Origin: Escherichia coli
Lineage (GTDB): Bacteria; Pseudomonadota; Gammaproteobacteria; Enterobacterales; Enterobacteriaceae
DNA length: 64,000 nucleotides
Assembly (NCBI RefSeq): GCF_030384885.1
Contig: NZ_CP128613.1
Direction: 5' to 3' (one strand)
Part shown: positions 1,014-12,477 of the stretch, piece by piece
Layout of the letters: the number at the start of each line of letters is the position of its first letter
Position numbering within the stretch: the first letter of the stretch is position 1
Notes under the pieces: model-generated
The model's database searches: none
What the model saw: only the letters and a program-made list of their open reading frames with translations
Told to the model about the DNA's origin: nothing
Translations under genes and position numbers: made by a program

Positions 1014-1871
1014 ATGATCAGGCAGAAGATTCTACAGCAGCTCCTGGAGTGGATTGAGTGCAATCTTGAGCACCCTATTTCAATCGAAGATATCGCACAG
1101 AAATCTGGCTACAGCAGACGCAACATCCAGCTTCTGTTCCGAAATTTCATGCATGTGCCTTTGGGAGAATACATTCGCAAACGAAGGCTTTGTCGTGCCG
1201 CCATTCTTGTCCGGCTCACCGCGAAATCTATGCTTGATATTGCACTCTCTTTGCATTTTGATTCACAGCAGTCATTCAGCCGCGAATTTAAAAAGTTATT
1301 CGGCTGCTCTCCCCGTGAATACCGCCACCGTGATTATTGGGATCTCGAAAATATCTTCCCTTCTTTTTTAATACGTCAACAGCAAAAGACGGAGTGTAGA
1401 TTAGTCAACTTTCCTGAGACACCTATTTTTGGCAATTCATTTAAATATGATATTGAAGTGTCGAATAAATCACCGGATGAAGAAGTCAAACTGCGACGTC
1501 ATCATTTAGCCAGATGTATGAAGAATTTTAAGACGGATATCTATTTCGTCTCCACGTTCGAACCGTCAACAAAATCGGTCGATTTGCTCACAGTTGAAAC
1601 TTTTGCCGGTACGGTATGCAAACAAACCGATTCAGAGATGTCGAAAGAGTGGACAATTAACCGAGGACTGTATGCCTCTTTCCGCTATGAAGGTGAGTGG
1701 GAGCACTACCCTGAATGGGCGCGAAACCTCTATCTGATGGAATTACCTGCCAGGGGGTTAGCCAGAGTGAACGGCAGTGATATTGAGCGATTTTATTACA
1801 ATGAAGATTTCGTAGAAAAGGATAGCAATGATGTTGTTTGCGAAATATTTATCCCTGTTCGTCCGGTTTAG
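1014..1871 (+). CDS. ykgA: AraC-family transcriptional regulator
   Basis: ORF 981-1871; internal ATG at 1014 preceded by GGAGA; N-terminal AraC-type HTH-like region; neighbourhood next to eaeH. Confidence 0.55.
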   Translation: MIRQKILQQLLEWIECNLEHPISIEDIAQKSGYSRRNIQLLFRNFMHVPLGEYIRKRRLCRAAILVRLTAKSMLDIALSLHFDSQQSFSREFKKLFGCSPREYRHRDYWDLENIFPSFLIRQQQKTECRLVNFPETPIFGNSFKYDIEVSNKSPDEEVKLRRHHLARCMKNFKTDIYFVSTFEPSTKSVDLLTVETFAGTVCKQTDSEMSKEWTINRGLYASFRYEGEWEHYPEWARNLYLMELPARGLARVNGSDIERFYYNEDFVEKDSNDVVCEIFIPVRPV

Positions 1872-1991: not shown

Positions 1992-4900
1992 TTATTTCAT
2001 CGCCTCCTCGCCCGTTGCCGTATTGGCATCCACCGCGGTAATGGTCACCGTCACTGGCTTCATTTCGTACCCGCCATAGGTCAGGGCGTTAAATGTGAAC
2101 GTATAGACACCAGGCTTGCTGGTACTAAATGTACGCGTGATTTTTCCGCTCACGAAATGGTCATTTTTCGACGGCAGGAACTGATAATCCTTCTCCGTCA
2201 CCCCTTCCGGCGTCTGAATGTCGACCCACATATTCCCGCCAACGGGGTTATTTGCCGACATCAGGGTCACCTCCAGCTTCGCAGTCGATTTCCCATCCGC
2301 CACCAGAGATTGCACATCAGATGATGCGGCGAGCACCGCGTTTTTATCATCCGCCACGAAACTGGATTCAGCCGTTTTCGTTGATACCTGACCGTTGTCC
2401 TGACTCACTTGCGCCGTAAGTGTATATTTCGCTGCAACAGTCGTGGTGGCGGTGAAAATAGCCTGCCCTTGCTCATTCGTTGTCGCTGTGCCATTCGGTT
2501 CCAGGTTTAACGAAGCCGGGCTGGCGGTCAGCGTCACTTCGCTATCTTTCAACAAATTGTTATTGGCATCAGTCACCGTAACTTTATACGTCTGTTTGGC
2601 TTTGCCATCCGCCACTGCACGGTTGCCAATCACCTCAATACTGGAGATGGTCGCCGTAGTCTTATCCGCCACAAACGTAATGCTCTTCGCGTCTGAAGGC
2701 TGGTTATTTCCTGCTGAAGCCGTGATCTCATACGTTCCGGCAGTCACTGAAACCACCTGCAACTCTGCTTTCCCCTCATCGTTGGCTTTCACCCAGACAT
2801 TATCGCCAGTAAGCGGTTTGACACCCCGGGGCAGATTAAATGTCACCAGAGTTCCTGGAACAGGGTTACCGTTTTTATCCTCAACGGTCGCCGTCAGCGT
2901 AAAGGCATCTTTGCCGTTTGCCACTTTTTGAGCGGCAGTGTCAACCTGCAGGTTTGCCTGACCGGTGCTGGCGTCTGCGTTGAATTTCACCGTGACCGTC
3001 TTCTGAGCATTATTCACTGAGGCCGTGATACTGTGTTCCCCAGCAACGGTTGCTATCAACTCAATGTCCGCTTTACCTGCCGCATTGGTTGTTACTGTAT
3101 TCCCCGTCTTGCTAGTCACACCCTGCGGTAAAGTCAGCGTAACTTCTTGCCCCTGCAACGGGTTACCATAGCTGTCCACGACGGTCAGGGTTACCTGGTT
3201 AGCAGACTGTCCATTTGCCAGTTGGTTATTCACCTTCACCGCCATATCACTGATCACTGCCCGGGAAGCGTCGCCTGCAACATTCAGCACCAATGGCTGA
3301 GCAACGGCATTTTGGCCGTTCACGCGTGGCATGACAGACAACTGACCTGCAGCCGATCCCAGCGTTAAGGTCGACACGTAGACCCCATTACCTTTCTCTG
3401 TCCAGTTTCCTGCTGAAGGACGCTCACTCCCCGTGCTGGCGGCACCGCTAAACACTGGTGCATCTGGCTTCAGCCCGGTGACCGGGTTCCCGTACGCATC
3501 CTTCACGGTGAAGGTGAGTTCCGTCGTCGTTTTAACCGTTGGAGTCTTATTGTCCGCAACAAGCGTAGAGTTCGCTGATGACATCTCCCCGGCGATGACC
3601 GTCAACTGCGCGGCTTCGGTGGCTGCTGGCTGGCCGTTGAAGAGCGGCATGACACGAAGCTCGCCCGTCTTTCCGCCTGTGGTCAACGTAGCAACATAGG
3701 AACCGTCACCTTTTTCGGTCCAACTGGAAATAGTCGCCCCTTCAGAGGCGGTCCCCGTCAAACTTGCCGACAACGAAAGACCACTGATAGCGTTGCCATG
3801 CGCATCTTTCGCCACCAGCGTCACGGTTGTGCTTTCGCCTGCTTTTACGCGATCTGCGGCTACAGACACTGTCGACTGGCCTGAAGATAACGCATCAGCC
3901 ACCACGGTTACTTTTGCCGCGTTTGCTGCCGCGTCCTGCCCATTGAGCTTCGGCATAACCTCTAATTCACCCGCCGTAGAGCCGAGAGTAATTTGCGCAG
4001 TCCACGTCCCATCACCATTATTTGTCCAGCCCGATGCCGTAGAACCTACAGCAGCGGCACCCGCTAATGACGGCGCTTCCGGCGTGAGGCTGGTCACAGG
4101 GTTGTCATAGGCATCTTTTGCCGTCCAGATTGCCGTAACTGTACCGCCAACCACCGGTTTATCAGGATTCAGTGTGATGGACGAATGTGCTGCATCAAGC
4201 GGCCCGGCAACAAACTTCAGCGTTTGTTGTAACGTGCCCAGCTGATACTGCTCGCTGAAGGCACGCACAACAACGTTTCCGGCACGGGTCGAAGAAACCG
4301 TGGCGCTGTAAACCCCTGGTTTTATTTCCGAAATGGCACCAACGGTTACACCATTAGTGTCTTGCGGAACAAGTCGCAGGCGGCTGGCTTCTCCCGTCAC
4401 CGGATTACCCTCGGAGTCCACCGCTGTCAGTGTCAGCGTGTAGGCTTGCTGACCATCAGCAACCACATCACCTGACGGCTCGTTAGCGCTCAGGGTGGAG
4501 TTTGCCACATCCATCATCGTGGCCCGCAGTTCTGCAGTGACAGTTTTGCTCATGTCATCAACGCTAACAGTAATCGTTACCTCACCTGACTGCGTTCCGG
4601 TAGTAAAGACAGACTGATACACCCCTGCTTCAGTTTCGGTGAACTCACCCAGTGTGGGTTTTGCCTGTGATTTAGTGGCCTTCAGGGTACGAGTCACAAT
4701 ATTTCCAGCCGGTTTGAAGGTTAGTTCAGTCTTGATCTGATCTTTCATGCCCGTGACTGGCTGGCCCTCGGCGTCGCGCAGAGACAGCACCAGCGGCTTT
4801 TGCTCATTACCGTTAGCAAGCATTTGAATACTGCTCTGACCGTCAAGCGTTAACGCCGTACGATCGGCGCTCATACCAGCTCCGCTAATAACCACTTCTG

Positions 4901-6245
4901 TCTGCACACGTTTCGAGGCATTGCCTTTGTTATCGTAGGCAACTGCTGAAATCGCATAATAATTGTCTTTGCCTGGACGGTAAGCCGGGAGCGTTACTTG
5001 CCACTGACTACCCTGACCGGTAATTTTGCCACCTTCAGCCAGTAATGACGGCGCTTCCCACTGCACATTTTTCAGTCCGTGAGTTGCTTTGCTGACCACA
5101 AGCCCCAGGGAAACCGTCTGACCGCCCTTGCCTTCAATACGCTCAGGCAGAGCAATACGGATCACTTCAGATTTGCGGTACTCAAGAACGATGTTGTTAT
5201 TACGCTCAACCAGGTCATAGCGGCTGCCTGCCAGCATTCGACGCTCGCGAATGCTGTCTGTATCGAGTTGTTTTTGCAGAGGTTCGCCAATTCGGTAGTT
5301 AACTTCCAGGCCAAAGCGAGTGTCATTCTCACCACTCTTGCCCTGCTTATGCCCGGCGCTCAGTGTCAGAAGAGGCACTGGTGTATAGGTTACCTCGGCA
5401 GAAATAGCATGCGGGTCTTTCTGGCGTTTATCTTTACCAAACAGCCCGACTTCATCGCCATAATACTGCTCATACATCAGGCTTGCGCCAAGCTGCGGCC
5501 AGGCAGGTAAATAGCCCTCAGCACGAATATCCCAGCCATTCGCCGGGCGTTCCTGATAATCCTCAACATCCGGTGATTTTTTCCAGCCAGAAGCCCGGAT
5601 ATAACCATTGGCGCTCAGTTTCAAATAATCACGCCAGTATTCCGCACCAACACCAATGCGGGTATGACTACGGGATAAATCATGATCGATAAAAGTATTC
5701 ACCCCCGCCATCCAGTCATTTCCTGAAAAATGACGCCAGCCAAAACCAATATTTGACTGAGTACGATCGTCGGTACGATGTATTGCCCCCTGAGTGAACA
5801 ACATATTTGTCGGCGTGTCATAAATCGGATAAAGCATTTCCAGCGAAGAGTCCTTCAGCGAGAAATTTTTATCGACATTCAGTTTGACGCGCGCAGTACC
5901 ATATTTCCCGAGCCACTCCTGTATTTCCTGGTTAGCTTTAGCTGTGGCCATTCCGGTAATAAAGTTACGTGTCGCATCGCTATCTGGCTGACTGCTTAAA
6001 AATGTCCCGGCATTTGCGGCAAACGATGCGACATTTTTCTCCACATTATTATCAGCAGCTACCGTGGTATTTTCCATGCTCAACCGTGGCTGAACCGCAT
6101 GCTGCGCGCGTGCTGCCATTACTGGGGTAAAGGTGACAGCGAGTGGGAAAAGAACCTGAACAGAGATATTTGCCCACGCCACGCAGCGGGCCAGAACTGA
6201 ATAACGAAATCGTGGTTGTTTATGACCTGTTTTATAACGTGACAT
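1992..6245 (-). CDS. fdeC: intimin/invasin-like adhesin with beta-barrel anchor and tandem Big domains
   Basis: 1417-aa ORF; N-terminal beta-domain then repeated Ig-like modules (TVTLTA.D..GNP.. repeats); matches recollection of FdeC/EaeH. Confidence 0.85.
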   Translation of the reverse strand: MSRYKTGHKQPRFRYSVLARCVAWANISVQVLFPLAVTFTPVMAARAQHAVQPRLSMENTTVAADNNVEKNVASFAANAGTFLSSQPDSDATRNFITGMATAKANQEIQEWLGKYGTARVKLNVDKNFSLKDSSLEMLYPIYDTPTNMLFTQGAIHRTDDRTQSNIGFGWRHFSGNDWMAGVNTFIDHDLSRSHTRIGVGAEYWRDYLKLSANGYIRASGWKKSPDVEDYQERPANGWDIRAEGYLPAWPQLGASLMYEQYYGDEVGLFGKDKRQKDPHAISAEVTYTPVPLLTLSAGHKQGKSGENDTRFGLEVNYRIGEPLQKQLDTDSIRERRMLAGSRYDLVERNNNIVLEYRKSEVIRIALPERIEGKGGQTVSLGLVVSKATHGLKNVQWEAPSLLAEGGKITGQGSQWQVTLPAYRPGKDNYYAISAVAYDNKGNASKRVQTEVVISGAGMSADRTALTLDGQSSIQMLANGNEQKPLVLSLRDAEGQPVTGMKDQIKTELTFKPAGNIVTRTLKATKSQAKPTLGEFTETEAGVYQSVFTTGTQSGEVTITVSVDDMSKTVTAELRATMMDVANSTLSANEPSGDVVADGQQAYTLTLTAVDSEGNPVTGEASRLRLVPQDTNGVTVGAISEIKPGVYSATVSSTRAGNVVVRAFSEQYQLGTLQQTLKFVAGPLDAAHSSITLNPDKPVVGGTVTAIWTAKDAYDNPVTSLTPEAPSLAGAAAVGSTASGWTNNGDGTWTAQITLGSTAGELEVMPKLNGQDAAANAAKVTVVADALSSGQSTVSVAADRVKAGESTTVTLVAKDAHGNAISGLSLSASLTGTASEGATISSWTEKGDGSYVATLTTGGKTGELRVMPLFNGQPAATEAAQLTVIAGEMSSANSTLVADNKTPTVKTTTELTFTVKDAYGNPVTGLKPDAPVFSGAASTGSERPSAGNWTEKGNGVYVSTLTLGSAAGQLSVMPRVNGQNAVAQPLVLNVAGDASRAVISDMAVKVNNQLANGQSANQVTLTVVDSYGNPLQGQEVTLTLPQGVTSKTGNTVTTNAAGKADIELIATVAGEHSITASVNNAQKTVTVKFNADASTGQANLQVDTAAQKVANGKDAFTLTATVEDKNGNPVPGTLVTFNLPRGVKPLTGDNVWVKANDEGKAELQVVSVTAGTYEITASAGNNQPSDAKSITFVADKTTATISSIEVIGNRAVADGKAKQTYKVTVTDANNNLLKDSEVTLTASPASLNLEPNGTATTNEQGQAIFTATTTVAAKYTLTAQVSQDNGQVSTKTAESSFVADDKNAVLAASSDVQSLVADGKSTAKLEVTLMSANNPVGGNMWVDIQTPEGVTEKDYQFLPSKNDHFVSGKITRTFSTSKPGVYTFTFNALTYGGYEMKPVTVTITAVDANTATGEEAMK

Positions 6246-6795
6246 TGAGATAATTTCCTGATGAACGAATTAACGAACATAGGCAAACACAAATAATGGT
6301 GTCTGCTTGTCAGAAAAGCCGGGGATTTCCCGGTTTCCTTTTCCGCAGAAAAGGAAATACCTTTATGTAAGAAAGTACACCGCCACCTAATATATCCAGT
6401 GTCTGTAGCCACTCATCAGGTGGGTGGGCGCGGGATTATATTTTTATTTATGGGTAAAAATTTAGCTTTTTGTGCAAGTCATTAAATAGATACCTAAGTT
6501 ATATTTCTTACTCTGCGGACAGTGAATAATTCATTATTCAGAGTGAATAATAATGACCTGCTTTTAATTTACCACGATTGGAAATACGTCGAAGTAGGTA
6601 TATACGCCAGGATAAACCGATATATTTTTTTTGGATATTCATTTTCCTTCATCGGACTGTAAATTGCGGGGATATCGAACTTGCACGACTCATCGCAACA
6701 CTCAAACAGATTTATGAATTTCGTTCATAACCCCTGACAAATCCTGCCGTCTAATCGAGCTCTTCCCTTTACGTTATGCTTCTCATGAACGATAA

Positions 6796-7386
<591 letters not shown>

Positions 7387-7935: not shown

Positions 7936-8223
7936 AGGAAGTTTGATAGCGATATCCTCCTGATTTTCAGGCTTTGTACCTGTTCAAGACTTACAACTAC
8001 AAGCCGCTACGTGTTAACGCCTCCCAAAATAACCACCGTTAACCGTAGCGGCCATAGATACTATTATTTTAGCCACATTACTGGTGATAATGATAATTGA
8101 TATTATGGCCGTATAGAAAATAAGTATTAATTATCAGAAAGTTTATTATGTAAACGCGTCCTAATGATTACGTTATTCCTCTTACCGATATTCGCCCAGA
8201 GCAACCATCAATTACACACATCA

Positions 8224-12116: not shown

Positions 12117-12452
12117 TAACGGCAATAAACTGTTCACTTCAGTGATATTTAAAATATGCATCCTCTCCCTTTTTTTTAAGTAATTATTATATTCGTGGGG
12201 GAGGAATACACGCTGTCAGGTAATCAATCAAACTGCGATAAATCATCGGCCAGTAAAGTGGAGATAGCCTCCATTCTCGAAAAATTCATACTCTCAGCGA
12301 AACCATCATCAATCACTCATCCAGGCGTTTATGGGAGCGTCGCCAATGGCTGCTAACAATGCCAGACTTCCCCGTTGCCGAAATTCCACATACCACAAAT
12401 GGTCACAGGAATTGGGTGTTGAAATGATTCGGATGAGCATGTATCTTTACGG

Positions 12453-12468
12453 TTATGTTATAACATAA
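12453..12468 (+). promoter_or_regulatory. candidate Zur box (palindrome TTATGTTATAACATAA) overlapping ykgM promoter
   Basis: 16-bp perfect palindrome 10 bp upstream of ykgM start; resembles Zur operator core; ykgM-type L31 paralogues are classically Zur-repressed. Confidence 0.55.
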
Positions 12469-12477
12469 CAGGTAAAA

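Follow-up and report, generated by a model that had tools for sequence, protein, structure and literature searches.

The region upstream of fdeC in Escherichia coli contains a repeat array that is real, non-random, and larger than first described. From its sequence we read this array, tentatively and with somewhat less than even confidence, as a weak ArgR-type operator made up of two 18-bp ARG boxes 3 bp apart (6521-6538 and 6542-6559). The array lies in a window of 64,000 nucleotides, by which we mean the whole stretch of DNA analyzed; the source strain is E. coli 2013C-4282, and an 851-bp stretch around the site is 100% identical to that chromosome. The adhesin FdeC, a vaccine candidate, is widely conserved in E. 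coli and silent in the laboratory. If ArgR binds, the expression of fdeC would depend on the arginine supplied by the host, and arginine is a signal with established ties to the control of virulence in enteric pathogens. Binding would also show that ChIP maps made in K-12 overlook regulatory sites that point mutations have removed from this strain. Without ArgR binding, the site would stand as a cautionary case, in which silenced, AT-rich DNA contains a repeat that is striking by statistics but has no specific function.

Table 1 Features of the fdeC region and tandem ARG-box scores of reference operators (positions in the window).
Feature	Position	Strand	Details
ykgA product	1014-1871		AraC-type HTH + C-terminal GyrI-like domain; convergent with fdeC
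Tandem ARG-box site TATGCTTGATATTGCACT-CTC-TTTGCATTTTGATTCACA	1229-1267		Inside ykgA CDS, ~215 bp after start; tandem PWM 25.8 bits, outside training set
fdeC	1992-6245	-	Inverse autotransporter adhesin, likely regulated gene; RefSeq annotation, IAT_beta domain
fdeC/reductase intergenic region	6246-6810		565 bp
Conserved proximal control block	6435-6478	-	Marbox-like CTTGCACAAAAAGCTAAAT (6478->6460) + perfect TATAAT (6440->6435), poor -35
Predicted distal sigma-70 promoter toward fdeC	6498-6526	-	-35 TTCACT (6526->6521), 17-bp spacer, -10 TATAAC (6503->6498)
fdeC upstream site (putative tandem ARG boxes)	6521-6559		Tandem PWM 17.6 bits (10.2 + 7.4)
ARG-box-like 18-mer 1, AGTGAATAATTCATTATT	6521-6538	.	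3 mismatches to WNTGAATWWWWATTCANW, 10.2 bits
ARG-box-like 18-mer 2, AGTGAATAATAATGACCT	6542-6559	.	3 mismatches to WNTGAATWWWWATTCANW, 7.4 bits
Direct repeat copy 1, AGTGAATAAT	6521-6530	+	10 nt
Direct repeat copy 2, AGTGAATAAT	6542-6551	+	10 nt, offset exactly 21 bp from copy 1
Perfect 8-2-8 inverted repeat TGAATAAT-TC-ATTATTCA	6523-6540	.	Half-sites 1 + 2
Second perfect inverted repeat ATTATTCA-GAG-TGAATAAT	6533-6551	.	Half-sites 2 + 3
Aldo/keto reductase pseudogene	6811-7371	+	C-terminally truncated, divergent from fdeC; annotation
Perfect palindrome GTTATGTTATAACATAAC	12452-12469		Just upstream of ykgM
Ten training operators			Tandem PWM 20.5-36.6 bits, leave-one-out
hisJ			Tandem PWM 18.0 or 20.7 bits, outside training set
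pyrL region			Tandem PWM 27.0 bits, outside training set

The repeat array

The starting point was a predicted palindrome with a half-site repeated 21 bp downstream, and a direct reading of the sequence bears out both parts. Positions 6524-6539 read GAATAAT-TC-ATTATTC, a palindrome that grows to a perfect 8-2-8 repeat (Table 1), and the 9-mer GTGAATAAT occurs at 6522-6530 and 6543-6551 with an offset of 21 bp, extending to the 10-nt AGTGAATAAT. The complete segment 6521-6559 reads AGTGAATAATTCATTATTCAGAGTGAATAATAATGACCT and contains three exact copies of the half-site TGAATAAT in the order forward/reverse/forward, their centers being 10 and 11 bp apart, or about one helical turn.

We compared the array with 3000 shuffles of the 565-bp intergenic region that preserve its dinucleotides. 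An inverted repeat with 8-bp arms (spacer 0-4) was found in 191 shuffles (6.4%), a 10-nt direct repeat at 10-32 bp in 56 (1.9%), and both together in 4 (0.13%), while the exact palindrome pattern is expected 0.03 times per window at up to 2 mismatches. No second copy of the palindrome motif was detected within the window, and the other copies of GTGAATAAT found there (3009, 43852, and 47335) are all unpaired and in ordinary coding context. These frequencies bear on a rival explanation that we regard as only slightly less probable than the ArgR reading, namely that the array is non-functional and has no regulator of its own, being a by-product of mutation in silenced, AT-rich DNA coated by H-NS, and adds at most some H-NS binding or curvature. 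Three exact 8-mers in alternating orientation and at helical-turn spacing, present in only about 0.1% of shuffles, argue against a by-product. However, the real window is about four times richer in perfect palindromes than its shuffles (26 versus 5.8), so the rarity estimated by shuffling is somewhat optimistic and overstates the significance of the array.

The same palindrome census recovered the perfect palindrome upstream of ykgM, which we take to be the Zur operator of the ykgM-ykgO operon of ribosomal-protein paralogues. Both this palindrome and the fdeC repeat are perfect and intergenic, but the ykgM element has another sequence and consists of a single dyad placed directly at the promoter of its gene.

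Flanking genes and silencing

RefSeq annotation and protein domains agree with the original prediction that the array separates fdeC (minus strand) from a divergent aldo/keto reductase gene (plus strand), with start codons 276 bp and 252 bp from the site, respectively. The further suggestion that the array coordinates these two genes is doubtful. Because the reductase is a pseudogene here and is missing from K-12-type strains, which nevertheless retain the site region up to window position 6796, joint control of both genes is unlikely to be the purpose of the site. Homology to K-12-type strains stops at 6796/6797, and what these strains lack is the reductase, a hypothetical gene, a LysR regulator, a hydrolase, and a flavin oxidoreductase, all located here between fdeC and ykgR. 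A different rearrangement is seen in E. coli A30, where an IS1 element takes the place of the fdeC side of the region (1-331 of the A30 locus); the IS1 end falls within ~50 bp of the equivalent of window position 6500, and only ~30 bp of the query aligned rightward.

Several properties of the locus fit a by-product of silenced DNA. The GC minimum of the intergenic region (33-35%) coincides with the repeat site, and fdeC is said, after Easton 2014, to be under H-NS and temperature regulation, with H-NS acting as a repressor. In K-12, eaeH lies in a protein-occupied domain that is transcriptionally silent (PMC4191405). Those portions of the literature that we could consult name H-NS and temperature as controls of fdeC, and report that pH and host-cell contact also affect its expression. 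On the other side, the H-NS high-affinity motif TCGATAAATT matches the site with 3/10 mismatches, which is no better than in shuffles, in this AT-rich context.

Similarity to tandem ARG boxes

The 21-bp period of the repeats led us to consider ArgR. The canonical ArgR operator of E. coli consists of two 18-bp ARG boxes with a 3-bp spacer (PMC6640053; PMC4381063). We used WNTGAATWWWWATTCANW as the ARG-box consensus and scanned for two 18-bp boxes in tandem, taking a spacer of 3 bp (2 bp in argR) as the mark of an ArgR operator. The fdeC site comprises two such boxes, separated by the 3-bp spacer CAG, with 3 + 3 mismatches to the tandem consensus over 32 specified positions. Box 1 has a perfect left half and deviates in its right half at C12, A13, and T15, whereas box 2 is good in its left half and at A12/T13 and deviates at G14, A15, and C16.

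For calibration, we scanned ten K-12 loci of 6-14 kb each that contain ArgR-regulated promoters. The top tandem match of each locus was located directly upstream of carA, argF, artJ, artP, argA, argG, argR, argD, argE/C, or argI. These ten operators show 2-7 mismatches and hisJ shows 8, compared with 6 at the fdeC site, the same total as artJ and artP; counted in this way, the fdeC site is the best tandem ARG match in the 64-kb window.

We then scored the site with a symmetrised position weight matrix (PWM) built from the ten K-12 operators. The score of the fdeC site is below those of the ten core operators, at about the level of hisJ, and higher than anywhere in the non-operator K-12 DNA that we scanned, which peaks at 15.4 bits. 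Scores of at least 17.6 bits were reached by 16 of 5000 shuffles of the intergenic region, and the maximum in 150 kb of arbitrary K-12 DNA was 12.6 bits. Within 318 kb of K-12 DNA, 11 of the 11 positions with at least 17.5 bits sit at ArgR-regulated promoters; a match to the ArgR design that is rarer than anything in the non-operator part of this DNA argues against a non-functional repeat. When 20 regulator consensus patterns were compared on the segment 6505-6575, the tandem ARG box was the only one to beat shuffles (0/1000 as good). The motif scan that the original prediction had proposed thus returned a PWM match of ArgR type, and its description of the palindrome as operator-like is supported by the non-random array together with a fit to the ArgR model far above chance.

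The resemblance is closest to the weaker operators of transport genes (artJ, artP, and hisJ). As in ArgR operators generally, two 18-bp AT-rich boxes lie exactly 3 bp apart, both boxes have WNTGAATWWWW left halves, and the site would overlap a -35 element, which in this case is a predicted one.

Departures from known ArgR operators

In other respects the fdeC site is unlike ArgR operators. It has no strong anchor box, the better of its boxes scoring 10.2 bits versus at least 14.6 bits in at least one box of every trained operator, and in neither box are both halves recognizable (G4, A6, T7 and A12, T13, C15). In their right halves, both boxes are degenerate just where real boxes are conserved: C12 of box 1 and A15 and C16 of box 2 are never present at those positions in the training boxes, and A12 and T13 are among the most conserved ArgR contact positions (PMC6640053). 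The site also has an extra perfect 8-2-8 palindrome whose right arm is shifted by 4 bp from the ARG-box register, so that ArgR would account for the direct repeat with its 21-bp period but leave the perfect palindrome unexplained. The putative target is an adhesin gene, whereas known ArgR operators serve arginine metabolism or transport. A PWM scan of AT-rich DNA from other genera gave two matches of ~19 bits, possibly by chance.

Our literature search returned no paper tying fdeC/eaeH to ArgR or arginine. The ArgR ChIP-exo study does not name eaeH in its text, and neither eaeH nor ykgA appears in the supplements of PMC13401006. As a separate observation, hchA, which is listed as an ArgR regulon gene, shows no tandem ARG score of at least 12 bits across its 50-kb locus (hchA around 29316), and therefore some ChIP-defined ArgR targets lack a recognizable motif.

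The palindrome that ArgR leaves unexplained is better accounted for, together with the third half-site, by the operator of a different regulator reading TGAATAAT half-sites, although on balance we think such an operator unlikely. The protein could be a dimer on the 8-2-8 repeat with the third half-site as an auxiliary, or an AraC-family dimer on the 10-nt repeats with their 21-bp period, a period that is also typical of AraC-family dimers (e.g. araI1-I2). YkgA is one candidate, since the neighboring ykgA encodes an AraC-type HTH and a GyrI-like domain, and the palindrome center would lie near -40.5 of the predicted distal promoter, a position of activator type. The site thus shares with the tandem half-sites araI1-I2 the direct repeats of 21-bp period upstream of a promoter and has an AraC-type gene adjoining it, but only 10 nt are repeated here and an inverted copy lies between the direct copies. 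The short repeated unit counts against this alternative, as does the lack of a second motif copy in the window. Moreover, among the 20 patterns no known consensus except that of ArgR fits, and the marbox consensus AYNGCACNNWNNRYYAAAY is mismatched at 5/14 specified positions at the repeat itself; Rob-like proteins bind asymmetric marboxes as monomers. The half-sites are also free of excess conservation, about 4/24 of their columns being variable.

Fur and other candidates

The label Fur-like, also part of the original prediction, does not hold. The array does consist of AT-rich ATAAT/ATTAT repeats in alternating orientation and so superficially resembles a Fur hexamer array, but we consider iron control of fdeC and the reductase through a box of Fur or its family very improbable. 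At its best alignment to the 19-bp consensus GATAATGATAATCATTATC, the site has 8/19 mismatches, compared with 3-5 for known boxes in the same scan (fepD-entS 3, entC/fepB 4, fhuA 5, and cirA 5 as positive controls from K-12 loci). That fit is at the level of shuffled DNA: 50% of the shuffles that keep the composition of the 71-bp segment do as well, and it is equaled or bettered at 535 positions of the window. A Fur box has either 7-1-7 geometry or the form of a hexamer array. The 15-bp 7-1-7 form TGATAATNATTATCA has no match at up to 4 mismatches at the site, where the half-sites are spaced by 10 bp rather than 8, the geometry is 8-2-8, and the repeated unit is the heptamer GAATAAT rather than the hexamer GATAAT. 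The Zur consensus is mismatched at 11/23 positions. Elsewhere in the window, the best match to the Fur consensus is GATAATGATAATTGATATT at 8086-8104 (4/19 mismatches), located between a gene for a hypothetical 118-aa protein and a LysR-family regulator gene.

The remaining consensus patterns besides Fur and ArgR, 18 in number, were literature consensus sequences. None of Lrp, CRP, FNR, IHF, ArcA, Zur, NarL (7-2-7), MetR, RcsB, OmpR, PhoP, Cra, PurR, the H-NS motif, NagC/Mlc, the marbox, LexA, or TyrR rose above shuffles in the segment 6505-6575.

Other kinds of element were considered and rejected. For a structured RNA there was no credible Rfam match, the sole match having E = 0.9, far short of the family threshold, and a DNA hairpin at the site would be weak (-5.5 kcal/mol, z = -1.9). 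A small ORF is not indicated, the ORFs being mechanical only and the region to the right being variable with indels. With respect to a mobile element or phage operator, no phage match was found, and every plasmid match is a record from E. coli; we take these records to be F-primes or chromosomal pieces.

Conservation and alleles of the site

A search of complete E. coli genomes located the intergenic region in 5048 of 5426, and the exact 81-mer at 6500-6580 is common to only 13 records. Variation in the sampled alleles clusters at 6560-6590, rightward of the site. Of the 11 E. coli alleles sampled, 9 have the core CAGTGAATAATTCATTATTCAGAGTGAATAATAATG unchanged, including O157 and several other sampled lineages, and two sister species also carry the intact type, with one core change in E. 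whittamii and two in Escherichia sp. E1V33. The outcome named beforehand as speaking against an operator, that no PWM match and no conservation would be found, is thus not what we observed: the site has a PWM match, and most of the E. coli lineages sampled, as well as both sister species, retain an intact core. This retention is a point against a non-functional repeat.

The degree of conservation, by contrast, favors a repeat without function, as the site evolves at the rate of its surroundings. No excess conservation was found: 6 of the 39 site columns vary versus a mean of 7.5, and 40% of 39-bp windows are as conserved or more so. Two further observations favor it as well. In strains of phylogroup A type, two substitutions alter two of the three half-sites, and one of these strains keeps a full-length fdeC. 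The divergent E69 lineage (FdeC 90% identical) has upstream homology covering 6478->6246 only, and the repeat is absent altogether. In Citrobacter and other genera, the upstream regions of distant FdeC relatives could not be aligned.

The allele shared by K-12 and 2015C-4498 carries T6534C and T6551C, which break the palindrome and lower the ArgR score from 17.6 to 7.6 bits; alleles other than the K-12 type score 13.7-19.9 bits. The K-12-type allele is derived and the intact allele ancestral, given that E. whittamii and Escherichia sp. E1V33 carry the intact type, a point in favor of the ArgR reading. Because the K-12 allele scores only 7.6 bits, ChIP data from K-12 cannot test the intact allele.

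Promoters and leader of fdeC

The best-scoring predicted promoter of the intergenic region is the distal candidate (Table 1), and its -35 element is situated inside box 1 and the left arm of the palindrome. The ARG boxes would span about -30 to -68 of this predicted promoter; overlap with the -35 element is the usual position at ArgR-repressed promoters (PMC6640053). In the mechanism that we propose, ArgR would bind the site at 6521-6559, the arginine-loaded hexamer contacting both ARG boxes on one face of the helix. Bound ArgR would overlap the -35 element of the predicted distal promoter and lower fdeC transcription when arginine is plentiful; alternatively, its binding might modulate silencing by H-NS. 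In the K-12 lineage, the site would have been lost through the two substitutions.

With respect to the predicted proximal TATAAT promoter, the repeat site would be located at about -93 to -131. The conserved proximal block contains CTTGCACAAAAAGCTAAAT at 6460-6478, 43 bp from the repeat, which agrees with the MarA/SoxS/Rob marbox at 13/14 specified positions. Taken as a 20-bp box, this marbox-like element ends 18 bp before a TATAAT that lacks a good -35, a geometry with the look of class II activator dependence. Marbox-like matches occur in the window at chance level (2 versus 1.3 expected). The homology of E69 to the region upstream of fdeC ends exactly at the edge of this element (6478).

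Further downstream, the 5' leader of fdeC (6296-6372, minus strand) contains strong adjacent hairpins (-25.3 kcal/mol, z = -4.1, 0/200 shuffles as good). These hairpins are terminator-like on both strands and are conserved even in E69, with changes mostly in the loop of the second hairpin. They could act as an attenuator or thermosensor relevant to the reported temperature control.

An ARG-box site within ykgA

A tandem ARG-box site stronger than that of fdeC is present inside ykgA (Table 1). Its score is one that proven operators also reach, and K-12 has the identical site. It was detected blind with the PWM, before the reported membership of ykgA in the ArgR regulon was known to us, and so served as an unplanned validation; a list of ArgR regulon genes defined by binding sites includes ykgA (PMC13401006, 2026). 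An intragenic position is unusual for ArgR.

These elements could be combined into an arginine-responsive FdeC circuit, intact in pathogenic and wild E. coli and decayed in K-12, with the repeat as one of its nodes, although we rate such a circuit as quite improbable. ArgR or another TGAATAAT-reading factor would act upstream of fdeC, ArgR would also act in ykgA, and YkgA or MarA/SoxS/Rob would activate the proximal fdeC promoter via the marbox-like element. Rob has the same pair of domains as YkgA, an AraC-type HTH and a GyrI-like domain. In K-12, ykgA is truncated and adjoins an IS3 element.
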